Source of the DNA: Candidatus Omnitrophota bacterium | GTDB lineage: Bacteria > Omnitrophota > Gorgyraeia > Duberdicusellales > 4484-171 | Assembly (NCBI GenBank): GCA_037146775.1 | Contig: JBAWWL010000009.1 | Coordinates: forward strand, 68,575-132,574 | Length of the DNA stretch: 64,000 bases | Reading direction: 5' to 3' | In this document: piece by piece, positions 4,602 through 63,959 of the stretch | How the letters are laid out: each line of letters starts with the position of its first letter | Position numbering within the stretch: position 1 is the stretch's first letter | Notes under the pieces: model-generated | What the model was told of the DNA's origin: nothing | What the model saw: only the letters and a program-made list of their open reading frames with translations | The model's database searches: none | Translations under genes and position numbers: made by a program

Positions 4602-4700
4602 TCTTGTATCCTAATCAAAAGTATACTTATCATTTTTTACTATCCTCTATTCTCCCCACTATATACTACATACTATGTACCATGTACTTTGTATTATGCA

Positions 4701-6765: not shown

Positions 6766-6934
6766 CTACGCCATCCTTAGAACAATAGAGCAATAGAAAA
6801 TAGACCGCAATGGAACACTAGCTCTATTGTTCTATTATCTATTGTTCAATTGCTCTGTTTTTTCTGCCGCAGGTAGAAAAAAAGGACCCGTCTGCATCCA
6901 ATTCGAACCGCATCCGAAGTAAAAGCAGAAATTA

Positions 6935-9489: not shown

Positions 9490-9610
9490 AGACGATACGA
9501 GCTTCGCCCGCTTCGCCGAGCGAATCGAGGCGAGTCACCGTCTGACGACCCCCGTCTTACTACATACTCACGACTATGTACTATGTACGACATGCTATGC
9601 ACTATAAATC
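9490..9610. repeat. Composite dispersed repeat: a GC-rich hairpin (CGCCCGCTTCGCCGAGCGAATCGAGGCGAGT) then ACCGT... then a TACTACATACTCACGACTATGTACTATGTAC module. Other copies are at 11480..11590 and 33087..33195 (the latter lacks the GC part), with partial copies at 4657..4700 and 54895..54960.
   Basis: Direct sequence comparison. All copies have the same orientation and lie 5' of minus-strand genes. Confidence 0.75.
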
Positions 9611-10934: not shown

Positions 10935-11589
10935 AGCTAACCAAACTCTAAACCGGTATCGTCGCTAGTATAGCGTATGTCGTATATAGTAAATAAATTC
11001 AAATACCAAAGCACAAATGACAAGTAAACTCAAAACTCAAAGCGTAAATCTCAAAACAGTTTTGCGTTTTAAGTTTTTACTTTTGAGTTTTATTCAATTT
11101 GTCATTTGGATTTTGACATTTGTCATTCCCTTCTCTACGTTTTGTCATTTGAAATTACACATATTATACTTTTTTTCTGCGGAAAAGTAAACGATTGTTT
11201 ATTTATGTTAATAGGTTAATAGGTTGATAGGCAATATGGAGAAAGTATGTCGTATGTAGTACGGAGTATATCGTTAAGAAAGCGGTGGGACGGGAGAAAA
11301 ATTAAAGAATTAACGAATTAAAATATTAACGCATTATTATATATTGTAAACGTAAAGCTAAAAACTTAAAATGTAAAATTGTTTACGCATCGTATATAGT
11401 ATGTCGTATATAGTGAAAACGTCTTACGGTTGCGCAACTCGTCACGGTTTACGTCTTACTTATCAAGACGAATAACGTCCGACGTCCAACGAAACGAGCA
11501 TCGCCCGCTTCGCTGAAGCTTTAGCGAGGCGAGTAACCGTTACCTCTATTCGATTTTCACTACATACTATGTACTATACGTCCATAGTG

Positions 11590-11634
11590 GGTAGAAAATA
11601 AGAAGCCCTGTTACGATTACTCGTAACAGGGCTT
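11590..11634 (-). terminator. Rho-independent terminator downstream of the OMP gene
   Basis: A perfect 13-bp stem (AAGCCCTGTTACG / CGTAACAGGGCTT) with a 6-nt loop, followed on the minus strand by CTTATTTTCT. Confidence 0.7.
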
Positions 11635-13475: not shown

Positions 13476-16400
13476 CTAAATAAGATAGACGTCAATACGC
13501 TCGATTTGGCGGTTACGCACAGCAATAGCTAAACTCGAGCTAACAGTATCGCCTTCTACAATATGATTCTTGCCGTCTTGAACAAGCACCACCCTGGACA
13601 CCTTACAACCATCCTTAAAGGTGTCTTTACGCTTAGGATTATGATAGACCACCAGGGTTGAAGAAAATAAATTAAAAGCGAAACAATTCTTATCAAGGGT
13701 TACCACTTTTTCCTTAAAGGTTATGGTTCTATCTTGGGTAGTAAAAAAATCCGCTTTCAGAGTAGGTGAAAATTTAATGTTAAGACTGTTGTCTTTCGCG
13801 ATAAAGAATGGCTCCTTGCCTAAACAGAGCAGCATCCAAATATTGAGGATCTCTACAGTTGCTCCGCTTAAGCGGGCAACAAAACCCTTACCCCATAAAC
13901 TCTTGTCAAGGTAAGCGCTACTGACAATGAAAGAAGAACTCTCCAAAGTATTTCTTCCGTACGTTTCAGGATCAAAGAAGCACACACAACAATTATGAAA
14001 ATCTTTGAAGAATTCTTCGTGGAGTCCGGTTTTAAGCATTTCCAGAAGATACTTATATTCCATATGCAGCCAAATCGACTCATTCTCAAGCCACCCTGGC
14101 ATAAAGATACGGCTCCTGCCTATCTCAAGCGGCTGGCTAGCCAAAGAAGCGTTCAAGCGGTACATCTTCAATTGCTCGTCAAAAAGCTCAGAAGTACGCA
14201 CGGCATGATACGTGCTGCGCTTTTTTTCTACACGCAAACAATGCACCGGGCCTTCTAAAAAATAAGGTAGCGGCGATTTCGTAAATTCTAAAGGCATCAG
14301 CTCCTTTTTCGTAAGATGATACTTCTTTACCTTATAAGTAAAATAGGCGTGGCAAAGGCCGTCACTACTATCTTTGGCTTTCTCGATACCAATAGTTAGT
14401 TTCGCCAACACATCCGCTAAAAAAGATTCAAGTTCCGCTAACTTTAATTCAGTGGTCACGCCGCTTATAGTAAAAAAAGTGCTGCGACGAAATTGCTCTT
14501 TTACGGTATTGGCTTTATCCCACCAGATAATGTCGCGGCTATTCTTTTCACTTATAAGATAATTTTTTAATAAAATCCGCAGGCGTTTAAAAAATAAAGC
14601 GTTCTCCTGAGCACAGGTCATCTTCTTCACGCCCTCTGCTTTTAAATGTGTGATTGCCTCCTGAAGCATAATACAGGCTCTTTTAAGCTCTAAGGTCTCG
14701 CACAAAGAAGAACCAAAAAGCGCAGGCAAACCGTTAAGCGAATCGCACCAGCCGGGCTTATCCGCCTCCATCTCAATGCCAATACCTTCGGGGTCAAGGG
14801 TAGCCAGTTTATTTAAAATTAAACTAAAAATTTTCTCCAAAAGTGTAGTTTTGTAAATCCTTCCTTTTTTATCGCGTAAAAAATTTCCGTTGCTGAGCCG
14901 TTTTTCTACTATCTCTTTCTTTTCAGCTACCTCCTCCACGCTATGCCACTGATAAACCGTATCGTCTTTTAAATGATACCGCCGTCTTCTTTCTTTTACC
15001 CGGTATTCGTCATCCCAAAAATAATATTCGCGGCTTTGATAAAGTTCGCGCAATTTGTCCGGATAGAAATAAAGATAATTTTCGATTAAATCCAAATTAT
15101 AACGCCAGTGGTCTATCCAGTAACCTTCGCCATGAGAAGCAAAAGGCTGACGGCTAGCCTCCTCTACTAGGCGTTTTACAAAAACTTCCTTGTCTTTAAC
15201 TTCCAGGCCTTCCTCCTTAAGCACTTTAAAACACTCTCCCAAGTGAAATCCGCTGGTCAAAAGATGTAGAAGCTTTTTATTGTTAATACGGAATTCCTTC
15301 AAGATTTTACCTGCAGTCTTGGATTTAAGAAACAATCTTTCGCCTTTAACCACCAAAGGATTATAGCCGTCAATTTTTATCAAATTAAGAAAATACACAA
15401 TGTTAGTTTTACCGATACGCGGATTAAAGAATAAATCTATCCTGCGGTTTTGGTTGATATCGCGGTAATTTGCCTCTCCTTCGCTAAAATAAGAAGGCGA
15501 TAGCTTAAATTTATTGTAGTCCCTCTCAAGGTCGCCATGCTTACGGGAAAAGATGTAGTAGATATGTTTGTCATCAAAGGTGTAGGGGTAGCCTCCACGA
15601 AGAACGTTATCCATATAAGAATTCTGCACGTATTCGTCAAACTCTTTATACCCGGAAACAACCAAAGCGTGATTTTTAAGTTTTGTAATTAAGCGCTCGT
15701 TCTCTTTTTCTTTATCTTGAATAAATTGGGCATCGATACCGGCAACAAAATCTTTAATCAGCTGTGACTTAAACGACGAGCCGAAAATACTGTAAAAGTC
15801 ACGGGTCTCGCCGGCAGATAACTTCCAGGAGAAATGGCTGAAAGCACACGGAGTTTTTCCGCAATCAATCTGGCTAAGAGGCACTTTAAAACCTTCTTCA
15901 TAAAAACGTACGGGAAAAGAAAATGAAGTGTCCTGGCCAAAGAGTGCGCTGGGGTCAACAATAAGATAAGGAGCAACTGTCTTACCTGCTTCGGGATAAA
16001 AGGCGTAATTAAAGTTAGCGCCATCAACATAACGAGTCTGGCTTGAATCTTTAGGGTCGACAATCAGACGAAAGGTGGCAAGTTTACCTTCCGCCTTAGA
16101 ATGCATCCACGCTTCAAGCGTACGCGCCAAGTCTTTAAGTAAAACGTGCGATAGACCAAACGGCACTATACGCGGGATGCCGTCAAGCACTTCAAGATCA
16201 ATATCTTTATCGGAAATATTTTTTATCGAAAGAATTCTCACGAGGCTGCCCACTGGTGTGGTAGGAAGCGTAAAATAACGCACACGAAAACTTAAACCAA
16301 GCTTATAATTTGTTTTTCTAATCTCGAAAGAATGGCTGCGAATTACCATTTCCTCTTCCCGCTCATAATCGGAAATGACCCTGAACGGTTCATAGGTTGT

Positions 16401-16667
16401 TTCGTGATTAATTTTTAAGAAGGTACGAAAACCCAGCAAAGGAGCTAAAGAATACGCTTTGTTAGCGGGAAAAAATTCAGCGATAGAATGATCCTTGTCT
16501 TTACTTCCAAAACTGATAATGCCTTGAGCGCGGTTTACGTAGAAAACCCACATTGGCACACCCCAGGCTCCGGAGACACCCGGAAGAAAGTTCGAGAAAG
16601 GATGTTTGCTGTTATAATTTTTTATAATAAAACTGCCGTCTTCCTGAAGCATATAGTCTTTATCCAT
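13476..16667 (-). CDS. Large (1063 aa) uncharacterised cytoplasmic protein. It may be a glycoside hydrolase/phosphorylase-like (COG3459/GH94-type) enzyme, but this is not confirmed.
   Basis: Long ORF with no signal peptide. Only a weak resemblance to six-hairpin glycosidase/phosphorylase-type proteins, so it is left unassigned. Confidence 0.4.
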   Translation of the reverse strand: MDKDYMLQEDGSFIIKNYNSKHPFSNFLPGVSGAWGVPMWVFYVNRAQGIISFGSKDKDHSIAEFFPANKAYSLAPLLGFRTFLKINHETTYEPFRVISDYEREEEMVIRSHSFEIRKTNYKLGLSFRVRYFTLPTTPVGSLVRILSIKNISDKDIDLEVLDGIPRIVPFGLSHVLLKDLARTLEAWMHSKAEGKLATFRLIVDPKDSSQTRYVDGANFNYAFYPEAGKTVAPYLIVDPSALFGQDTSFSFPVRFYEEGFKVPLSQIDCGKTPCAFSHFSWKLSAGETRDFYSIFGSSFKSQLIKDFVAGIDAQFIQDKEKENERLITKLKNHALVVSGYKEFDEYVQNSYMDNVLRGGYPYTFDDKHIYYIFSRKHGDLERDYNKFKLSPSYFSEGEANYRDINQNRRIDLFFNPRIGKTNIVYFLNLIKIDGYNPLVVKGERLFLKSKTAGKILKEFRINNKKLLHLLTSGFHLGECFKVLKEEGLEVKDKEVFVKRLVEEASRQPFASHGEGYWIDHWRYNLDLIENYLYFYPDKLRELYQSREYYFWDDEYRVKERRRRYHLKDDTVYQWHSVEEVAEKKEIVEKRLSNGNFLRDKKGRIYKTTLLEKIFSLILNKLATLDPEGIGIEMEADKPGWCDSLNGLPALFGSSLCETLELKRACIMLQEAITHLKAEGVKKMTCAQENALFFKRLRILLKNYLISEKNSRDIIWWDKANTVKEQFRRSTFFTISGVTTELKLAELESFLADVLAKLTIGIEKAKDSSDGLCHAYFTYKVKKYHLTKKELMPLEFTKSPLPYFLEGPVHCLRVEKKRSTYHAVRTSELFDEQLKMYRLNASLASQPLEIGRSRIFMPGWLENESIWLHMEYKYLLEMLKTGLHEEFFKDFHNCCVCFFDPETYGRNTLESSSFIVSSAYLDKSLWGKGFVARLSGATVEILNIWMLLCLGKEPFFIAKDNSLNIKFSPTLKADFFTTQDRTITFKEKVVTLDKNCFAFNLFSSTLVVYHNPKRKDTFKDGCKVSRVVLVQDGKNHIVEGDTVSSSLAIAVRNRQIERIDVYLI

Positions 16668-16691
16668 ATTTCCTCCTGTAGAATTTTATAA

Positions 16692-16853
16692 ATCAGAAGT
16701 CAGAGATCAGAGGTCAGAGATCAGAAATCAGAGGTCAGAGGTCAGAAGTCAGAGATCAGAGGTCAGAAGTTAGAGGTCAGACACCCTCTGTCTTCTGTCT
16801 TCTGTCGTCTGTCGTCTGTTCTCTGTCTTCTGTCATCTGTCTTCTGTCATCTG
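16692..16853. repeat. Heptanucleotide tandem array as an inverted pair: about 13 CAGAGGT-type units, then the spacer ACACCC, then about 10 TCTGTCT-type units
   Basis: This fills the whole intergenic region between 16667 and 16858. The left half is purine-rich and the right half pyrimidine-rich, at about 70% complementarity, giving an imperfect long hairpin or cruciform. Confidence 0.85.
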
Positions 16854-16857
16854 TTTA

Positions 16858-17499
16858 TCATTCATACAAATCTAATAATTCCTTCAACGAAGAGATTACT
16901 TTTTTATCTTTATATTTCTTTACCGCAGACAGAGAACTCGAGCCGCCCCGGATAAATACAGCATCCACACCGGCGCGACAAGCAGTTTCTAAATCAATGT
17001 CCATATCTCCCACGAAAACAGCGTCTTCTTTCTTAAGTTTAAATCTTCTTAGTATTGTTTTCAATATCTTAGGGTGCGGTTTATTGCTGTGAATGTCGTC
17101 AGCACAAAGAACCATATCGAAATATTTATCGATACTGCGTGCTTTTAAAATTACTTCGGTAAACGCGTGTGGCCGGTTAGAAGCTATGGCCAGAATTTTC
17201 TTTTTTCTCTTTAAAGCAGAAAGTACGCCTTTGACGGAAGGCGCAAGGCGCGAATACTGTACAAGCGCTTGATGATGATGCGCGCGATAAATAACTAAGG
17301 CAGCTTTGAAGTTTTTTTTCGCAAAGAAAGTTTCCATAAAGGCTCTATCGCCCCGGCCAACTTTCTTTTTAGCTTCCAAATAACTTATCGCGCTTAATCC
17401 TAACTGCCTACGCGTAAAGTTCAAGCTTTTCTCTATCGCCCGATAAGCGTCGGCTAATGTCCCGTCTAAATCAAAGATGAAAATCTTTTTTGTTTCCAC
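16858..17499 (-). CDS. HAD-superfamily hydrolase (phosphoglycolate phosphatase-like)
   Basis: Motif I is FIFDLDGTLAD. Motif IV is VFVGDMDIDLETA. Confidence 0.75.
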   Translation of the reverse strand: METKKIFIFDLDGTLADAYRAIEKSLNFTRRQLGLSAISYLEAKKKVGRGDRAFMETFFAKKNFKAALVIYRAHHHQALVQYSRLAPSVKGVLSALKRKKKILAIASNRPHAFTEVILKARSIDKYFDMVLCADDIHSNKPHPKILKTILRRFKLKKEDAVFVGDMDIDLETACRAGVDAVFIRGGSSSLSAVKKYKDKKVISSLKELLDLYE

Positions 17500-25719: not shown

Positions 25720-25745
25720 ATTAACCTCACTCCGTTTGGCAGAAA

Positions 25746-25913
25746 TCAGACGTCAGAGGTCAGAGATCAGAGATCAGAAAAAAAAGAAATAAGAATATTC
25801 TGCCTTCTGGCTTCTGGCTTCTGTCATCTGACCTCTATTTTTTGTCCTCTGCCTTCTGATCTCTGTCATCTGTCCTCTGTTCTCTGACCTCTGTCCTCTG
25901 TCTTCTGTTCTGA
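25746..25913. repeat. Heptanucleotide tandem array as an inverted pair (CAGAGGT-type units, A-rich spacer, then TCTGNCY units), flanked by inverted GGCAGAA/TTCTGCC
   Basis: Same family as the array at 16692-16853. The right half extends into the 3' end of the RND ORF. Confidence 0.85.
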
Positions 25914-28900
25914 TGAAACACCGCATACACCGTAGGAACAAATATCATAGTAATTAAGGTGGACACCGATAATCCGCCAACCATGGTAACACCTATAGGC
26001 TGCCACGTCTCTGAACCCTCACCGTTAGAAAGAGCCAAAGGCAGTAACCCCGCCAAGGTGGTAATGGTGGTCATCAAAACTGGCCGCAACCTATCCTTGC
26101 CACCAAGAGTAACTGCTTCATGCATCGACAAACCTCTGGCACGTAATATTTGGATATAGCTCACCAGAACAATAGCATTATTAACTACAATACCCATTAG
26201 CATAACCACACCTAAATAGCTGATTACATTTAAGGTTACGGGTTCAGGAAAAATGAATTTGAGAAAAGGCAATTGCGTAGCCAAGAAGCCTAAAATTACT
26301 CCCGTAAAAGTAAAAGGAATCGAAAACATGATAATGAAAGGATCAAGCAAAGATTCAAACTGCGCCGCCATCACCATATATACCAAACAGGTACCCAGAA
26401 TTAAAAGCAAGAAAAGGTCCCTGAATGCTTTTCTCTGTTCATCGGCCTCACCCCCAAAATTCACCATAATGTCAGCGGGTAAAGTTATTTTTGAAAATTC
26501 TTTTTTAAGGTCATCGACAATTTCTCCGGAAGAACGTTTATAGGTGTTGCATTCCACCCGTACTATCCTTTCACGATTCTGGCGTTCAATCTCTATGGGC
26601 CCGAGGCTTTCATATATTTTTGCAATATTCGATAGTTGAACCGGCCTTCTTAGACTGCCCCCCTTTAAAGTAATGACATCCTGTAACGGAGTAAATGTTT
26701 TTATGTCTTCCGGTAAAGGCGAAATAATCGGTAAATTCCCGATATCTTCCAGCTTCGAACGAGACGGTTCATCAAGCCGGACATAAATATCGTAGGTTTC
26801 CCCCTTCTCTCTATATTTGGTAGCGGAAGAGCCCTCGATAAATGTTTTTAGGTTACTCGCAATAGTGTACATATCCAGGCTTAGCATGGCTGCTTTTTCT
26901 CGATCAACTTCTATCTTAATTTCCGGCCGGTTTTCATCACGAGAAATAGCCGCATCGACGGTCCCGGGTATTTTTTCCATAATTGCTTTTATTTTTTGTG
27001 CTATCAAATCCGTATCCGCAAAAGAATGCCCAATTATTTCAACCTGTATGGCTTTACCGCTGGTTCCAGTAATTAACCTGCCTATAGGATTGCCGGTAGA
27101 AATGTCTGCCTTGATAACACCGGGAATGTTTCTTATTTTGTTACGTACTGCCTGGCCTACTTCTTTTACGGATCGCTTCCTTTTCTCTTTAGGTACAAGC
27201 TTTGCCCCCGAAGTGACAACATGTGTTCCTGAAGCGTTACCCATGCTTCTTCCTATGCCACTTACTTGTCCGCTTCTTACATAATAAAACCTTGCTTCAG
27301 ACACATCAGCTTTTAAAATTTCCTCTATCCGCTTCGCAACCTTGTCTGTTTCTTCCAACCGCGTTCCCACGGGAAGACTAACCGTAATGCGCAAATCTCC
27401 GGAATCTTCTTCCGGAATAAATTCACTGCCGACGAAACGGGCTAAAAATAAACTCGCGATAAAAGCGGCGAGAAAGCCAAGAAGCACTATTTTTTTATGC
27501 CGTAATGCCCAACCAAGAACGCGCGCATAATAATCTTCCCACGACTGAAACATTTTTTCCGAAATCTCATAAATCTTCTCTTTCCACACCCTCAATCTCT
27601 GCCACCTGCCCCCTGCCTTCTGTCCTCTGACCTCTGTCCTCTGATCCCTCCCCATCCACTTCGAACAAAGCATGGGGCTAAAAGTGGCGGCGGTAAAAAG
27701 AGAAGCGAGCAATGTTACGGTTACAATAATTGCCAGCTCCCCAAACATGATACCTACTACTCCGGGAATAAACAGCATCGGTAAAAATACAACGACGGTA
27801 GTAAATGTTGAAGCAGATATGGATAAAAACATCTCGGAAGTTCCAAAGATTGCCGCCTCGGTGGGCCGGTTACCTCTTTGTAAGCGCCGATAAACATTAT
27901 CCACCACTACAATCGCATTATCTACCACCATACCGGTAGCAATAGCGATAGAAGAAAGACTAATAGTATTTATAGTTTTACCGCTTAAAAAAAGATAAAT
28001 AAAGCTGATAAGTAACGAAAAAGGAATGGTCAAGACGATGATCATACTGGGAGCGAATTGGCGCAAGAAAAACCAAACTACAACGATTACCAAAACTATC
28101 GCTATCCAAAGAGAAGATTTTAAAGATTCTAGTGAATTTATAATATCCTGGGAGGTATCAAAAATAATATTCATTTTAACATCAGCAGGAAGGTTCGTTT
28201 CTAACTCTTTCAGTCTTTTCTTAACGCGATTAGCTACCTCTACGGCGTTGGTTCCGCTTTGTTTTTGCACCATCATAATTATTCCGCGCTCTTGTTTAAT
28301 ACGCACCAGGCTGGTTACTTCTTTAAAACTGTCTTCCACTCTCGCTATATCTTTCAGATAAATAGGTTTGCCATTACGCTTACCTAAAATAACTAAGTTT
28401 ATTTCTTCGGGAGTGGCAAACTCTCCGGGTAATCTTATCAAATAATCGGTAAGGCCGGTTTTAAGGCTGCCTACGGGTTGGGTAATATTTTCTCTTTTTA
28501 AAGCTTCCTGGATGTCCAAGATAGAAAACGCATAACCCTCCAGGCGCTGACGATCTACCCAAATATTGATTTGCCGCTCCAACCCCCCGCCCTGTAACTG
28601 CACGGTACCTACCCCGGGAAGTTGGCGGAGAGCATCACCGATGTTTTTATCCATAAGATCATACAGATCGGGATAGGTTTGTTTTGCGGTCACGCCTATG
28701 GCTAAAATTGGAATATCTGCGGTATTAAATTTATGAATAAAAGGATTGTCCATTTCATCAGGAATATCGGGCAAATTCCTTTTGGCAAGTTCAATGCGGT
28801 CGCGGATATCATTAGAGGCTTCATCTAAATTAGTTCCCCAGATAAATTTAAGGGTGACGATCGAGAAACCTTCCGAAGAACGGGAAGTAATTTTTTCTAA

Positions 28901-29137: not shown

Positions 29138-29557
29138 TTAGTTACATTCCCCATGCGGAAGCATGGGGTCTTGCTCCTTTTTCTGATTACGTATATATCG
29201 CCTAACCTTTTCTATTTCTATTTTTTGTACCTGCCGATAGCCGTACCTAGTTGCCCAAAAAGCTTTTCCTTTCTCCACAGGCTTCCGCCTGTGGTATCTG
29301 CATTTCCCTTGCAAACAAAGACCCAAATGTATTTCTCTTGAAGAAACACTTTTTAGAGTTCTCACAACCGCAGATAGTTCTTCTTTAGTATTAACCTCTA
29401 CCAACAAATGCACGTGGTCTTTATTTGTTTCGTACTCTAATACTTTATATTTATGCCTTTGTATGCATTCTGCAAAAATATCCTTAATAGCTCGTTCCAT
29501 CCCATCCTGTAGTATTGGTTTTCTATATTTAGTCACAAACCAAACATGGCAATGCAT
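29138..29557 (-). mobile_element. tnpA: IS200/IS605-family Y1 (HUH) transposase TnpA. It is possibly a domesticated RAYT-like copy; only 9 bp separate it from the RND start.
   Basis: 139 aa. MHCHVWFVTKYRKPIL...DHVHLLVEV carries the HUH motif, with a downstream Tyr. It is flanked on one side by the heptamer array at 29557-29640. No room for a full IS end before the RND start. Confidence 0.8.
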
Positions 29558-29640
29558 CGCTCTGTCCTCTGACCTCTGCCCTCTGTCATCTGCCCTCTGT
29601 CATCTGCCCTCTGTCATCTGTCCTCTGTCTTCCGTCTCTT
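29557..29640. repeat. Heptamer tandem array (TCTGTCCTCTGACCTCTGCCCTCTGTCATCTG...) directly abutting the tnpA start. It also encodes the C-terminal tail of the adaptor protein.
   Basis: Same TCTGNCY family. It translates as ...EETEDRGQMTEGR at the end of ORF 29600..30577. Confidence 0.8.
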
Positions 29641-30508
29641 CCTCAACAACTACTTCCGCTCCCTCGCGTAGACGTTGCTGACCCATAATAACGACAAGAT
29701 CTCCTTCTTGTAACCCCTCGGTTACCTCATAATAGGGACCTTGACGGATACCTAAAGCAATCTTCTTTAATACTGCTTTCTTGTTCTCAATTGTAAACAC
29801 ATACAAATCCGGATATCTGCCTATAATCGCCTCTTTTAAAATAACCAGCGCCTTTTTATGTTCCTGCAAAACCAAGTTAACCCGGGCAAACATTCCTGAC
29901 TGGAGTTTATGCTCATAATTATCCACAGTAATCTCTATCGGCGCAGCACGGGTGCCTAAATCTACAACCGGGCTAATCTTGGTGATTTTTCCGACGAACT
30001 GTTCTGTGGAATATGCATCAACGCTTATGTTTGCACTCTGGCCTAATGAAATCTTGGATAAATATTTTTCAGGAATTTCTACCCCTATCTTTACTCTATC
30101 CATGCTCACCACCAAAGCGATCGCAGTCTGAGTATTCACATTAGTACCTATATCCACATACACTCTGCCTATTCTACCGCTTAAGGTACTTTCTACGGGC
30201 GCTTTCTCAAACTTTAAGCCCACCTCATCGCGATCAATGTAAGCGATTACCTCTCCTTTGTTAATTACGGCACCGTCTTCTTTCAGTTTTTCAATAATTT
30301 TACCGCTTACCTTAGGATAAATAGCGACTTCGTCTTCTGCTTTGATATTACCGACATATTCAAGGATGCTCGCCACATTCTTGAATGTGACTCTATATAC
30401 TTTCACCGGTATCGATTGCAAAGCTTCGTCTTTCTTTGCCCCTTGCGTCGAGCAAGCGCTCATAAACAATATGGCCATAGAAATTATTGCGATATTATTT
30501 TTTTTCAT
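29600..30508 (-). CDS. RND efflux periplasmic adaptor (membrane fusion protein), lipoprotein. The start is taken at MKKNNIAIISMAILFMSAC.
   Basis: Lipobox LFMSAC, a biotinyl/lipoyl-like half-barrel and beta-barrel HlyD-like pattern. Lies between tolC and the RND gene. Confidence 0.8.
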   Translation of the reverse strand: MKKNNIAIISMAILFMSACSTQGAKKDEALQSIPVKVYRVTFKNVASILEYVGNIKAEDEVAIYPKVSGKIIEKLKEDGAVINKGEVIAYIDRDEVGLKFEKAPVESTLSGRIGRVYVDIGTNVNTQTAIALVVSMDRVKIGVEIPEKYLSKISLGQSANISVDAYSTEQFVGKITKISPVVDLGTRAAPIEITVDNYEHKLQSGMFARVNLVLQEHKKALVILKEAIIGRYPDLYVFTIENKKAVLKKIALGIRQGPYYEVTEGLQEGDLVVIMGQQRLREGAEVVVEEETEDRGQMTEGR

Positions 30509-32839: not shown

Positions 32840-33193
32840 CGACCCTCCTCCACGGGCATGCCCGTGGCAACCACATCAGTAACATTCTGCTTATAACGAA
32901 ATTCATATGAGTGAATTCAAAATTCCAAGTACAAATTACAAACAAACTCTAAACACTAAACTCTAAATCCTAAATAAACTCAAAACGAAAAACTCAAAAT
33001 TAAAAACGATACTGGTTTGAGTTTGGAATATTTGAATTTTGGATTTGTTTAGGATTTAGGATTTCGGATTTAGAGTTTATCATAAGCCGTTACCGTTAAT
33101 CGGTTTTCACTACATACGACGTACTATGTACTACATACTATATACTCAGTACTCACTACTCACGACTATCTACCATGTACTACGTACGACATA

Positions 33194-33586
33194 CTATTTC
33201 ACTGCATATTTTCCCGCGCCCAACATCATAAGCGCCAAGCAGATGCACGCAATAACAAAAGTATATTCGAAACCTCCTTGCTGGATAAAAAATCCTTTAG
33301 ATAAATGCACGGTGGCTGCGGCTACCATGATAAATACCAATAATAATGCCGCCGCCAGTCTGGTCCAGAAACCAACCAGTAAACACACACCACCGATAAG
33401 TTCGCTGCAGGCCGCAATATAAGCCCACACCAAAGACGGTTTAAAACCAAGGCCTGAGAGCATCTGACTAAAACCATGCAGACCCGGACCGGAAAACAAA
33501 CCAAAACTTGCCTGCAAACCATGCCCGATAAACACAACTGCTAAACATAAACGTAAAACTAAAATAGCTACATCTGTCATATACAC
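33194..33586 (-). CDS. DoxX-family membrane protein
   Basis: MTDVAILVLRLCLAVVFIGHGLQ... matches the DoxX pattern. 130 aa with 4 TM helices. Confidence 0.7.
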   Translation of the reverse strand: MYMTDVAILVLRLCLAVVFIGHGLQASFGLFSGPGLHGFSQMLSGLGFKPSLVWAYIAACSELIGGVCLLVGFWTRLAAALLLVFIMVAAATVHLSKGFFIQQGGFEYTFVIACICLALMMLGAGKYAVK

Positions 33587-54588: not shown

Positions 54589-54940
54589 TGTTCCTCCTTT
54601 TGCCGATACGATCGGACTAAGGCGTAATCCTTGCTAAAAAAATAGCTATCGTCCAACACATTTCTTTATTCTTCCCAACAACCCATCAAAAACAATCATC
54701 CAACAAACTGGCTATATTTTATATTTTTAATTTTTGATATTTGATATTTAATTTTTCTGACCCTTCCTGCCTACTAACCTATCAACATACTAACCTATCA
54801 ACCTATATTCTTTCCCCAAATAATTCGTTAATCATTTAATCCGTTAATTCTTTAACCTACTAACCTATCCACCTATCAACATATCAACCTACATAATACT
54901 CACAACTATATACTATGTACTCAATACTCACGACTATATA

Positions 54941-56242
54941 CTATAGCGACGCATCTACCTCAATAAAAATACCTAAAATAATATCTCGCCCGGCAAGATG
55001 CATAGTTTGCGCATTGAGAAAAACTGGTACAATGGTACCATTTTTATGCTGCACTTCAACCGCAATATCTTCTGTACGGCCCCTTTGTGCGTGTATATAA
55101 AATTTTTCTTTATACTTTTCTTCCTGGCCAAAAGGATGCAATTGCCACTGCTGCATACCGACCAACTCCTCGTGGCTATAGCCCAAAAGCGTTTGCGCCT
55201 GCCGGTTACACTCAATGATATTGCCGGTTTCAATATCAGCTATAACCATTGCTGTACCCGCATTATCAAAAATAGTCTTAAATTTTTCCTCTGATTCCCG
55301 CAGCGCCAACTCAGTCTTCTTGCGTTCGCTAATGTCAACATTTACCTCCGCTACCAGCCATTCACCGTTTTCATTTTGGAAAGGTATGGTTGTTATCTGG
55401 ACGGGCCTGTTATTTTCTTTTACTAATACTTCTTCCGTAACTTTTAGCTGTTTAGTTTTTAAAGCCTCTACGATACCGCAGCCGGGACAAATATCGTTGC
55501 GGCCCATGAAATACTGATAACATTTTCTTCCCTGCACTTCGCCATATACTTTCGCCCATTCCGGATCAATATAACGTATATTGAATTCTGTATCAATGAT
55601 ATCCAGCCCTGTCTTGGTAGCTCCGAGAATATATTCTATTTGTTTTTTAAGCGTGCCTAATTCTAGCTGCATTGTTTTACGGTGCGCAACCTCTTCCTGT
55701 AATTCCACGTTTGTCCTAGCTAATTCAAAAGTACGCCTTTGTACGCGTAGCTCTAAATCTTCTTTCACTTTTTCAAGTTGAGCCTCAAGTTTATGGCGCT
55801 CGGTGATATCGCGGAAAATACCGGCCACATATTGCTTCCCGCCGCAATTAAGCATGAACCCTTTAATATCAACATGCAATATTTTTTTATCTTTCTTAAG
55901 TAAAGGGATATTTTTTGCTAAGGTAATCTTTTTGTTGATAATCTTCTCAAACTGAGCCAATACGTAGGGAAACTCTCCTGCGGGATGAATTTTATCAATA
56001 GTCAGCTTTTTAAGCTCTCCAAGGCTATAACCCAGCATTTGGCATATACTTTTATTGCCTAAATATATTTTCTTAGTTTTTGGTTCCGCCAAGAGCATGC
56101 CATCATTAGCATAGTCAAAAATATCTTTAAAAATCTCTAGCGGCGCCGCACACATATCTCTCGTTTCACCTCGTAGCGTGCCTTTGGATAAAAAATTCTT
56201 CCTATGTGATAATTTATGCATAATTTTTTTTGTCCGCTTCAT
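54941..56242 (-). CDS. PAS-domain signalling protein (multiple PAS, no output domain recognised)
   Basis: Several PAS-like segments separated by coiled coils (e.g. FDYANDGMLLAE..., IEYILGATKTGLDIID..., FKTIFDNAGTAMVIADIETGNIIECNRQAQTLLGYSHEELVG). No kinase, GGDEF or HTH domain. Confidence 0.6.
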   Translation of the reverse strand: MKRTKKIMHKLSHRKNFLSKGTLRGETRDMCAAPLEIFKDIFDYANDGMLLAEPKTKKIYLGNKSICQMLGYSLGELKKLTIDKIHPAGEFPYVLAQFEKIINKKITLAKNIPLLKKDKKILHVDIKGFMLNCGGKQYVAGIFRDITERHKLEAQLEKVKEDLELRVQRRTFELARTNVELQEEVAHRKTMQLELGTLKKQIEYILGATKTGLDIIDTEFNIRYIDPEWAKVYGEVQGRKCYQYFMGRNDICPGCGIVEALKTKQLKVTEEVLVKENNRPVQITTIPFQNENGEWLVAEVNVDISERKKTELALRESEEKFKTIFDNAGTAMVIADIETGNIIECNRQAQTLLGYSHEELVGMQQWQLHPFGQEEKYKEKFYIHAQRGRTEDIAVEVQHKNGTIVPVFLNAQTMHLAGRDIILGIFIEVDASL

Positions 56243-61268: not shown

Positions 61269-63959
61269 CTATTTTTTCTGTTGTTCCTTTTCTTTTTGTT
61301 TCTCGGCAACAATTTTTTCGGCAATATTGGGCGGGACCGGCTCATATTTGGAAAATTGCATTGAGAACGTAGCGCGGCCACTCGAGAGCGAACGGAAAAT
61401 CTGCGAATAACCAAACATCTCCGCAAGCGGCGTTTCCGACGTAATAAGTTTTTGGTTACTTTTTGCATCTATATTTAAAATTTTTCCTCTTTTTGAACAG
61501 AGATAGCCGACGATACTGCTTACGTATTCCTCAGGAGTTAAAACCTCTACCAGCATGTATGGCTCAATAAGAATAGGCCTGCCCTGCGGGAAGGTTTCCC
61601 GGAAACAACCCATCGCTGCCAGGCGAAAAGCAATATCGGAAGAATCAACGTCATGAAATGAGCCGTCCAATACCGTCGCTTTAAGGTCTACCGTAGGAAA
61701 ACCGGCATACACTCCCTTCTTCATGACTGCCAATAAACCTTTTTCTATCGAAGGAATAAAATTCTGTGGGATTGCTCCTCCTTTAATTTTGCTTTCAAAC
61801 ACAAATCCTCCGCCACGGGGGTTAGGCGAGAATTCAATCACCACGTGCCCGTACTGACCGTGGCCGCCGGTCTGTTTGATATGCTTATATTCGCCGGTAA
61901 CAGCCATTGAAATAGTTTCCTTGTATGCTACCTTAGGCGGGCTTACCTCGGCTTCCACTTTGAATTCATCTTTTAGCCTGTCTACAATAATTTCCAGATG
62001 CAGCTCTCCCATGCCGGAGAGAATAATCTCGTTAGTATCTTCGTCAGTATTAAACGCAAACGTCGGGTCTTCCTCTACCAGTTTCATGATAGCTTTGCTT
62101 AATTTATCCTGATCCTGCCGTGTTTTAGGCGTAATGCTTATTGAAACAACCGGGTCAGGAAATTCTATCGACTCAAGCAGTATTGGCCGATTCGGATCAC
62201 ACAACGTATCACCGGTTGTGGTGCTGGACAACCCTACCGCCGCACCGATATCGCCGGCGCAGATATAGCTTTTATTTTCTTTCTGATTAGCGTGCATCTG
62301 CAAAATTCTACTTACTCGCTCTTTTTTATTTTTTGCGCTATTTAATATATACGTACCCGGTTCAAGATACCCTGAATATACTCTAAAATAAACGAGTTTT
62401 CCTACATGCTGATCCGCTTGAATCTTAAACGCCAGCGCCGCAAACGGTTCGTTTAAAGAAGGCGTTGTTTTAATAATGACCGTAGGGTCTTGTGGATCTT
62501 TTCCCTCGGCCGGCGGTACGTCTAAGGGCGAAGGCAGATAAAAGATAACCGCGTCAAGAAGCATCTGCACACCCTTGCTTTTAAGCGCTGTTCCGCAGAG
62601 AACCGGAATAAGTTTATTGGCGATAGTACCTTTGCGGATAGCGTCTTTAAACTCCTGAATGCTGACTGAATTTTCATCCTTTAAATATTTTTCCATTAAC
62701 GCCTCGTCCATGTGCAGCGTTTTTTCCATAGTACTGTGGCGCCATTTTTTTGCCGTTTCCATATATTCCGGCGGTATATCTGTCACCGTAAATCCTGCCT
62801 CTTGATGCTCTTGATCGTACACATAAGCTTTCATTTCAATAAGATCGATGATACCCCTGAAGTCCGCTTCCGCACCCAAGGGAATCGCTACCACCGCGGT
62901 ATTCGCGGCTAATTTATCTTCTATTTCTTTTACGACTTTGAAAAAATCAGCGCCAACACGATCCATTTTATTGATAAAGGCGATTTTAGGCACATTGTAT
63001 TTATCAGACTGCCGCCATACGGTTTCTGATTGGGCTTCGACTCCGCCAACCGCACAAAATACCACAATAGCTCCGTCAAGTATCCGTAAAGAACGTTCCA
63101 CCTCCGCGGTAAAATCCACATGGCCGGGAGTATCAATCACATTGATTCGCATATCGTGCCACAAACAAGTAGTAGCTGCCGCAGTAATAGTAATGCCGCG
63201 CTCACGCTCTTGTTTCATCCAATCCATAGTTGCTTTTCCGTCGTGGACCTCTCCAACTTTGTGTATTTTTCCGGTAAAGAAAAGTAACCGTTCGGTAAGC
63301 GTAGTTTTGCCGGAATCGATATGCGCCATAACGCCGATATTTCTTACCTTGCTTAAATCAATAGACAATTCACTGGGAGCAACTCTAGTGGTCTGTTCTT
63401 GTGATGCTCCTGCCTGCGCTCCAGCTTCTTCAGCAGCTACACTGTCGGTATCTACCGGAATAGCTTCAGCCGGAGTAAGAGGCTGATCAGGGCTTTCGCC
63501 CTCTTGCGGGGAGGCCGGAGCCGGCAATACAGGTTCTTGTACAAGAGGCGGCTGCTGCACCACGGGAGGCTCTACTGTTTCCGCCAAAAGAGGCGTTTCG
63601 CTGGCTGTTTGTTCCTGAATCGGCGGCAATGCGTCCTGTGCGCCTTGTTCAGGAATCGCTTGCGCTTCTTGCGGCACGACTATGCCTTGGCCGGCGGTTT
63701 CTTTGGTCTTGTTGACTAATTGAGCATGTAGTTGCTGCTTCTCGGCTGTTGCCTTCTCCAATTCTTCTTCTTTAGCTAAAATCTGTCTTTGTTTATGCTC
63801 TACCTCTGCTTCCAGCGCTTCGTAACTTTTTTTTAATTGCTTATACTCGTCTTTCGTCACCCATTCACTCTGCTCTAGCTTACGCTTTAACTCGTTAGCG
63901 AGTTTAGTCTGCTCTTGCCACCGGGCAAGATAGTCTTTCAACTTCGCTTTCATTATCAA
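61269..63959 (-). CDS. Elongation factor G-family GTPase (paralog) with a roughly 200-aa N-terminal coiled-coil and Pro/Gln-rich extension
   Basis: From about residue 205: [21 protein letters not shown]...[22 protein letters not shown], and the full five-domain EF-G layout. The N-terminal 200 aa are a coiled coil ([46 protein letters not shown]) plus a PQ-rich linker. No in-frame Met lies between residue 1 and the G domain. Confidence 0.8.

Follow-up and report, generated by a model that had tools for sequence, protein, structure and literature searches.

The window analysed here, a 64,000-nt stretch of a contig from the metagenome-assembled genome of an uncultured Candidatus Omnitrophota bacterium, carries a paired array of heptanucleotide tandem repeats between the genes for a HAD-family hydrolase and a large protein, which are positioned upstream and downstream of the array, respectively, with all genes in its vicinity lying on the - strand (Table 1). 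The large protein of 1063 aa shows a weak match to the GH149 family and gave no match in a Pfam search. The spacer between the two genes extends over 190 nt (16668-16857), and the heptamer pair, which the initial annotation had described as the whole intergenic region, is real but occupies 162 of these 190 nt. The remainder consists of the 4 nt that separate the HAD stop codon from the start of arm 2, as read on the - strand, and of a 25-nt non-repeat leader, in which a GGAGG motif (16672-16676) is located 4 nt ahead of the ATG at 16667.

Table 1. Main array, flanking genes and further members of the repeat family in the window
Feature	Position	Strand	Basis
Large-protein gene, 1063 aa, downstream of the array	13476-16667	-	ORF, profile search
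Non-repeat leader of the large-protein gene	16668-16692	-	sequence, relatives, promoter scan
Main array, arm 1, ~12.7 TCAGARR units, purine-rich on +	16693-16781	+	TRF, sequence, unit list
Arm junction CACCC, 5 nt; loop in the predicted hairpin	16782-16786	.	sequence, fold
Main array, arm 2, ~9.7 TCTGTCN units, pyrimidine-rich on +	16787-16854	+	TRF, sequence, unit list
HAD-family hydrolase gene, upstream of the array	16858-17499	-	profile search, synteny in relatives
Second pair, purine-rich arm, CAGARRT x 5.6	25740-25778	+	TRF, sequence
Second pair, A-rich spacer	25779-25797	.	sequence
Second pair, pyrimidine-rich arm, TCTGNYN x ~15	25798-25908	+	TRF, sequence
Degenerate array in frame inside the AcrB-type gene	27599-27650	+	sequence, profile search, relatives
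IS200/IS605-type Y1 transposase gene, 139 aa, between the HlyD and AcrB genes	29138-29557	-	profile search
Single unpaired array, ~12 units	29560-29644	+	TRF, sequence, relatives

Tandem Repeats Finder (TRF) assigns to arm 1 a period of 7 with 12.7 copies, 81% matches and the consensus TCAGAGG, and additionally a 21-nt super-period that scores 88%, while arm 2 is described by a period of 7 with 9.7 copies, 86% matches and the consensus TCTGTCT. When arm 1 is read on the mRNA-sense - strand it becomes (AYYTCTG)n, and the two arms are members of one family, (TCTGNYN)n, placed in opposite orientation and sharing a conserved TCTG core. The inverted layout of the pair that had been annotated initially is thereby borne out, but not the notion of two different repeats. 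Across the 58 units of all arrays in the window, positions 1-4 (TCTG) carry 1.66-1.87 bits and position 6 (Y) 1.26 bits, with positions 5 and 7 at 0.39 bits, and the conservation of the core is present in the unpaired array as well. A five-unit pattern, (TCTGNYN)x4 followed by TCTG, has 27 matches in the window as opposed to none in 100 dinucleotide-preserving shuffles, and these matches are confined to 16694-16853, 25740-25907, 27619-27646 (four units only) and 29561-29627. This upholds the earlier statement that four copies within 13 kb are beyond chance, and the recurrences that had been placed near 25746-25913, 27601-27650 and 29557-29640 are found at 25740-25908, 27599-27650 and 29560-29644, respectively.

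Three of the four loci of the TCTG family touch or enter reading frames. The purine-rich arm of the second pair ends approximately 20 nt ahead of the start of the next gene (25719), and positions 25835-25908 of the same pair encode a hydrophilic C-terminal tail of the AcrB-type protein (RRQRTEVREQRTDDRDQKAEDKK). The array at 27599-27650 is not intergenic at all and is contained within the AcrB-type reading frame, where it encodes about 10 extra residues (the DQRTEVRGQKAGGRWQR region) in the loop that follows ...SPMLCSKWM, after TM6; the Pfam model of the AcrB-type RND pump passes straight through this segment. The unpaired array supplies in its portion 29600-29644 the last 15 codons of the HlyD-type gene, again as a hydrophilic C-terminal tail, and ends at its other side 3 nt before the ATG of the Y1 transposase gene, giving a GAGGA motif resembling a Shine-Dalgarno sequence. 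Two of the translated arrays supplant the original stop codons and equip the AcrB- and HlyD-type proteins with a charged tail each, and in all three translated arrays (27599-27650, 25835-25908 and 29600-29644) the purine-rich strand is the sense strand. An unrelated oddity among the reading frames of the window is the elongation factor G ORF (61269-63959), which comprises 896 aa from a TTG with the EF-G model beginning at residue 200; its extra N-terminus is probably an over-extended ORF call, not a real extension.

The window also contains inverted pairs made of other units, which are located at 6778-6856, (TAGAACAA)/(TCTATTGT), at 11026-11092, (AAACTCA)/(AGTTTTA), and at 32944-33071, (AAACTCA-like)/(TTTGGAT), and in all of these the purine- or A-rich arm comes first. 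A degenerate heptamer family with the unit ACTAYRT is present at 4658-4698, 9573-9588, 10960-10990, 11244-11269, 11389-11411, 11560-11590, 33109-33197 and 54896-54945, two of its copies (at about 11553 and 33104) having the junction TTTTCACTACATAC in common. In the long intergenic regions at 10.9-11.6, 32.9-33.2 and 54.7-54.95 kb, several short-period families are combined into mosaics, among them the 8-mers AACCTATC and TAATCCGT.

The arrays are real, and the chance that they represent an assembly artefact of low-complexity reads is negligible. The k=31 contigs of Logan, which constitute an independent assembly of the same reads (SRR12676968), are base-for-base identical to the window; they break within the two longest arrays, as an artefact would lead one to expect, but they do so at a 30-mer that is present twice in the array, with both contig ends matching the window exactly and overlapping by this repeated 30-nt k-mer, and they cross the arrays at 25740-25908 and 27599-27650 intact. 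The same family is found at the orthologous AcrB tail in a genome assembled from a different sample. It has to be noted that the exact unit number of the longest arrays could be off by one 49-nt block. The breaks of the short-k assemblies in the longest arrays are located at the ends of L121 and L203 and at the start of L204, and many contigs in the genome scan described below begin or end in such arrays. Heptamer arrays thus fragment short-read (metagenome) assemblies, and they put artificial-looking tails and insertions into predicted proteins.

With the large protein as query, a metagenome scan yielded 80 loci, six of which keep the BioY-HAD-large-protein gene order, with a HAD identity of 55-67%. 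None of these six synteny-keeping relatives has a heptamer array in the spacer between HAD and the next gene, which measures at most 87 nt, and therefore the array at 16692-16853 is a lineage-specific gain in a tight operon junction. Relative to the orthologous spacers about 14 nt are replaced, with no clear target duplication, on which grounds a transposon-like insertion was rejected. The scan returned no strain of the same species (best 64-66% identity), and the closest available genome, GCA_030692055.1, has an AcrB that is 88% identical. In that genome the HlyD and AcrB genes lie 4 bp apart, without the Y1 gene and without the array, the AcrB tail contains a 4-unit CAGA-type array versus approximately 15-17 units in the window, and the internal loop of AcrB contains approximately 4 degenerate units versus approximately 9 here, corresponding to a 10-aa difference. 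The copy number thus differs between relatives, as had been anticipated, at both the tail and the internal loop. The spacer after AcrB in this relative (L202, 6236-6376) has an inverted pair (AAATCCG)4...(CGGATTT)4, i.e. the slot behind AcrB is conserved while its sequence is replaced, being CAGA/TCTG in the window and AAATCCG/CGGATTT in the relative. The gain, expansion and replacement of arrays thus take place over the time in which species diverge. Among tandem-repeat periods, 7 is the most frequent both in the window and in 675 kb of relatives, and the window is about 5 times richer in such arrays per kb than the latter.

The initial annotation had considered a mobile or recombinogenic repeat family, of which the dispersed family stands, given its four loci and its orthologous position in the relative, and the discrete mobile element does not. 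The latter is unlikely because the copies at the four loci share no non-repeat core or terminal sequence and no target duplication is seen. A related proposal is that of a mobile repeat driven by the neighbouring Y1 (HUH) transposase in a REPIN/RAYT-like manner, in which the TCTG core would be the site of single-strand cleavage by the enzyme, which would also copy or expand the arrays in trans; we regard it as quite improbable. The Y1 gene does start 3 nt from the array at 29560-29644, and gene and adjoining array are both missing in GCA_030692055.1, but the array flanks the gene on one side only and many intergenic spacers of this array-rich lineage carry arrays anyway. The inverted pairs are laid out like REP doublets, as the proposal would have it, but the four loci are devoid of a conserved non-repeat core, of ends and of a target duplication, and the protein is of the IS200 type, since its score exceeds the cut-off of the IS200 model (80.3 versus 55 bits) and falls below that of the REP-associated transposase model NF047646 (36.8 versus 80 bits). 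A tblastn search with the Y1 protein against 837 kb around the 120 array loci of other genomes among the matches listed detected no homologue, and neither did a search against the loci of the large-protein relatives, such that a general link between Y1 and the arrays, which had been suggested for testing, is not borne out among these matches. Three of eight distinct Y1-family loci (the window, L205, L206, L207, L213, L214, L216 and L217) do have a short-period array 0-25 nt directly upstream of the Y1 start (L206 1-35, L213 339-412 and window 29560-29644), the units of which are nevertheless unrelated, namely CGTACAT, GTTGTCTGAG/AGGTTGC and CAGAGGN. REP or REPIN elements with a RAYT were rejected, the unit being a 7-nt tandem, not a 20-40-nt palindrome, next to a Y1 that fails the RAYT model and has an array on one side only.

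The homologues of the Y1 protein (40-64% identity) are encoded in compact cassettes that are inserted, in the same direction, between the genes of operons and leave spacers of 4-72 nt, for instance at PilB|PilC, PP-binding|FabA and HlyD|AcrB sites, among others. A hairpin of the form CCCCATRC-loop-GYATGGGG is found at or across the Y1 stop codon at five of the eight loci (window, L205, L206, L214 and L217), and at four of these five a GGAGG-like site belonging to the next gene comes after the hairpin. The arrays upstream of Y1 could, from their sequence, reflect either a target preference or just shared permissive sites, and as a lead on Y1 making or moving arrays they are suggestive at most.

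With regard to expression signals, a sigma-70 promoter scan of 16400-17100 gave none in or after the main array on either strand, and since the stretch downstream of the array is too short to accommodate a promoter, the pair would be transcribed within a polycistronic mRNA. A terminator scan of the same region gave none on the - strand and a single weak match on the + (antisense) strand. An intrinsic terminator was rejected, since the - strand has no G+C-rich stem-loop with a U-tract and the downstream gene follows at 25 nt with no promoter of its own. Rfam 15 at gathering thresholds matched only tRNAs in the whole window and nothing in the array, and at E<=1 it added only generic hairpin matches of 16-24 bits compared to thresholds of 53-100; a tRNA scan for an integration site gave only two unrelated tRNAs at approximately 9 kb. 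The contiguous 7-nt units without spacers are also unlike a CRISPR array, for which 23-55-nt repeats and unique spacers are needed, and with no 20-40-nt palindrome in the unit, the initial verdict of neither CRISPR nor classic REP is confirmed.

Heptanucleotide phase variation is known (PMC13001214), and the arrays could in principle be a contingency switch in which the gain or loss of 7-nt units toggles expression, comparable to the heptanucleotide tract of neuO in E. coli K1. We consider this highly improbable. A change by one unit would shift the frame at the tract inside AcrB (27599-27650), but slippage is made less frequent by the degeneracy of the intragenic units; unit numbers differ between relatives, but the main array sits between a stop codon and a ribosome-binding site with no promoter-like site in or after it on either strand, and a change of its length alters neither a reading frame nor a promoter spacer. 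The phase-variable spacer between the HAD and large-protein genes that had been envisaged is, for lack of such a promoter-like site, unlikely.

The two arms are 71-77% complementary, in agreement with the approximately 70% estimated beforehand, and the long imperfect hairpin that had been anticipated is recovered in the predicted folds of both strands. For the main element the RNA fold of the - (mRNA-sense) strand has -67.8 kcal/mol with a z of -5.4, and that of the + (antisense) strand -82 kcal/mol with a z of -8.2. For the second pair, the two strands fold about equally well. The better folding of the + strand, as modelled, would run against the prediction made by selection on an mRNA hairpin. 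Among 16 pairs taken from the window and other genomes, the agreement of mirrored units at the variable positions does not exceed that obtained with a shuffled unit order, a correlation in mirror register being absent from all 16, and in several pairs the two arms consistently carry different variants. Both a hairpin kept by compensatory change and one made by fold-back copying were rejected on this basis, the complementarity in 16 of 16 pairs being that of shuffled arms. The sequences suggest instead that the pairing potential comes from the shared core and is available in any register.

A pattern scan with one genome per species detected at least 120 array loci spread over many phyla, including Omnitrophota, Planctomycetota, Acidobacteriota, Desulfobacterota, Cyanobacteria, Bacteroidota and Verrucomicrobiota. 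Predicted phage genomes (L242, L245 and L298, the last being IMGVR_UViG_3300045928_000228, and others) also contain TCTGNYN arrays with purine-first pairs, and one viral contig of 45.6 kb has at least 4 pairs. The order of the arms is strikingly uniform: the CAGA arm precedes in 15 pairs against 1 in genomes and in 13 against 0 in viral contigs among the matches listed, and in 2 against 0 in the window, i.e. 30 of 31 close pairs of the window and the matches listed have the purine-rich arm in front (binomial p = 3e-8). Since both arm orders are strand-symmetric, this polarity does not stem from a bias in detection. When built of other 6-9-nt units, the inverted pairs at the same loci, among the matches listed, are purine-first in a ratio of 16:5. 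The gene calls in the foreign loci were crude longest-ORF calls; by these, 21 of the pairs among the matches listed lie between co-directional genes, 5 between convergent and 2 between divergent ones, and in the matches listed the pairs usually span from the upstream stop codon to 1-22 nt ahead of the next start codon.

Three testable regularities can be derived from this distribution, namely a TCTG core with three loosely constrained positions that is found in many phyla and in phage contigs, an almost invariable purine-arm-first order of the paired arrays, and the typical occupation by these pairs of the entire spacer between co-transcribed genes. If these regularities are due to a directional process, for example transcription or the coupling of translation, the arrays would constitute a control element inside operons that is widespread and tunable by its length.

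On balance, we lean towards an account, taken as a whole, in which the arrays belong to a dispersed STRR-like TCTGNYN family in its inverted-pair form that grows by slippage and has its effect as an intercistronic hairpin. The arrays sit in permissive places, these being tight intra-operon spacers, C-terminal tails and one cytoplasmic loop, and are most likely tolerated there. Judging by the unit pattern, they would grow and shrink by slipped-strand mispairing in 7-nt steps and in blocks of 14, 21 or 49 nt, presumably with no dedicated transposase being involved and with each arm evolving by itself. Within a 160-nt hairpin, any unit of one arm could pair with any unit of the other via the CAGA:UCUG core in any register, and a pair transcribed in a polycistronic mRNA would thereby give a register-tolerant intercistronic hairpin, much like REP/BIME. 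The pair most likely acts, if at all, as such a register-tolerant hairpin in the polycistronic transcript, which could reduce read-through or give protection to the part of the mRNA upstream of it, its strength being set by the number of units; the start codon following so closely after the pairs argues against efficient termination. The purine-arm-first polarity would fit a directional process such as transcription. Of the two kinds of RNA:DNA hybrid, pyrimidine-RNA on purine-DNA is the weaker one, and if the purine arm is transcribed ahead of the other, closure of the hairpin would coincide with a hybrid of this weak type.

Neutral slippage alone, however, leaves several observations unexplained: TCTG hardly varies while positions 5 and 7 are free to do so, in the unpaired array as in the others; a single unit family recurs at four loci; and the polarity is 30:1 in the window and the matches listed. 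The conserved core, the four-locus recurrence and the polarity would be compatible with a role in which the arrays are read by a protein or by the ribosome. In its most specific form, which we consider unlikely, the arrays would be binding sites for a DNA-binding protein that recognises the TCTG core every 7 bp and forms a polymer along consecutive heptads. Recognition of this kind is known from the omega repressor of inc18 plasmids, a ribbon-helix-helix protein whose targets are contiguous WATCACW heptads in both direct and inverted orientation, and the layout found here would be compatible with operators of this type. A conserved 4-nt core next to the free positions 5 and 7, in the unpaired array too, has the look of a binding motif, and the strict arm orientation resembles the orientation preference of cooperative binders; yet the window has several other 7- and 8-nt families, and other units occupy the same slot in relatives, each of which would need a protein of its own. 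The orientation of the arrays relative to co-directional flanking genes shows no bias (41 versus 40 among the matches listed, with crude ORF calls), which fits the reading of double-stranded DNA, but arrays are also present in coding sequence, in many phyla and in phages, and no gene for a candidate binder lies next to them. Regulator binding has also been proposed for the MTYCTGA pairs of Geobacter by Aklujkar et al. (PMC2700814).

A very remote alternative is that the arrays are the scars of templated repeat-addition at DNA breaks and not products of slippage. Here, each 3' end would gain CAGARRN units through a telomerase-like, reverse-transcriptase or primase-polymerase activity, and the ends would then be sealed head to head to produce (CAGARRN)n-spacer-(NYYTCTG)n, in the layout of a telomere-telomere fusion. 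If true, this would cover the 30:1 polarity and the invariant core with its degenerate remainder, as well as the pure insertion relative to orthologous spacers and the one-sided single arrays. No candidate for the enzyme was found, and slippage combined with selection is the more economical explanation.

Repeats of this kind have already been described in bacteria. As summarised in PMC4679880 and PMC4692102, heptamers are the most abundant class of long SSRs in bacteria, with polymerase slippage as the proposed cause of heptamer arrays (Mrazek 2007), and dispersed heptanucleotide arrays, the cyanobacterial STRR, have been reported since 1990 (Mazel 1990). The window arrays fit this heptanucleotide long SSR/STRR class, being head-to-tail 7-mers beyond chance at several loci and of varying length. 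They share with the STRR, the long SSRs and the TAACTGA arrays the several heptamer families per genome, the mostly intergenic location, often upstream of starts, the scattered phylogenetic distribution and slippage as the proposed origin. The TAACTGA arrays of Beggiatoaceae, which adjoin start codons just upstream, have a different unit and are almost always direct, with one inverted set in 170 (PMC4679880).

The window arrays also fit the type of the inverted heptamer pair, as both pairs in the window (2/2) and 28 of 29 pairs elsewhere, among the matches listed, have this layout. Two Xanthomonas genomes each contain 70-75 inverted GGGAATC pairs, which are always convergent (Rehm et al. 2015, PMC4692102); the repeat length differs between the two species, with the type, pair or single, being usually the same (PMC4692102). 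The Xanthomonas GGGAATC and Nostoc GGGGAYT repeats (PMC4692102) are, like those described here, dispersed intergenic heptamer arrays of 2-26 units, their length varies between related species and convergent gene contexts are commoner than divergent ones, and the convergence of the Xanthomonas pairs on the G-rich strand equals the polarity observed here. They differ in having G-runs and forming G-quadruplexes in vitro (PMC4692102), whereas CAGARRN is without a G-run. REP, BIME and REPIN elements resemble the present pairs as intergenic inverted doublets that make long hairpins inside operons and between convergent genes, but a REP unit is an imperfect palindrome of 20-40 nt that has a conserved GTAG head and is associated with a cognate RAYT, as opposed to the 7-nt tandem arms here.

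A further likeness is to Geobacter metallireducens, in which Aklujkar et al. (2009, PMC2700814) described eight pairs of five MTYCTGA heptamers, e.g. at proB-proA, as "class 3 global regulator binding sites", with IHF/HU-type "global regulators" proposed as binders and the binding itself being a hypothesis (PMC2700814). By published consensus, the TCTGAMT register of MTYCTGA equals the window unit TCTGACT. The Geobacter pairs are likewise on opposite strands, with the TCTGA strand running outward from the centre, and lie between operon genes, and the same genome also has paired families of 8 and 9 nt, as does the window. They are unlike the arrays described here in having 5 units and a fixed length compared to 10-15 degenerate units, and in belonging to another phylum. 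The arrays of the window are neither a new mobile element nor an immune array, and the locus adds the phylum Omnitrophota to the hosts of heptamer arrays.
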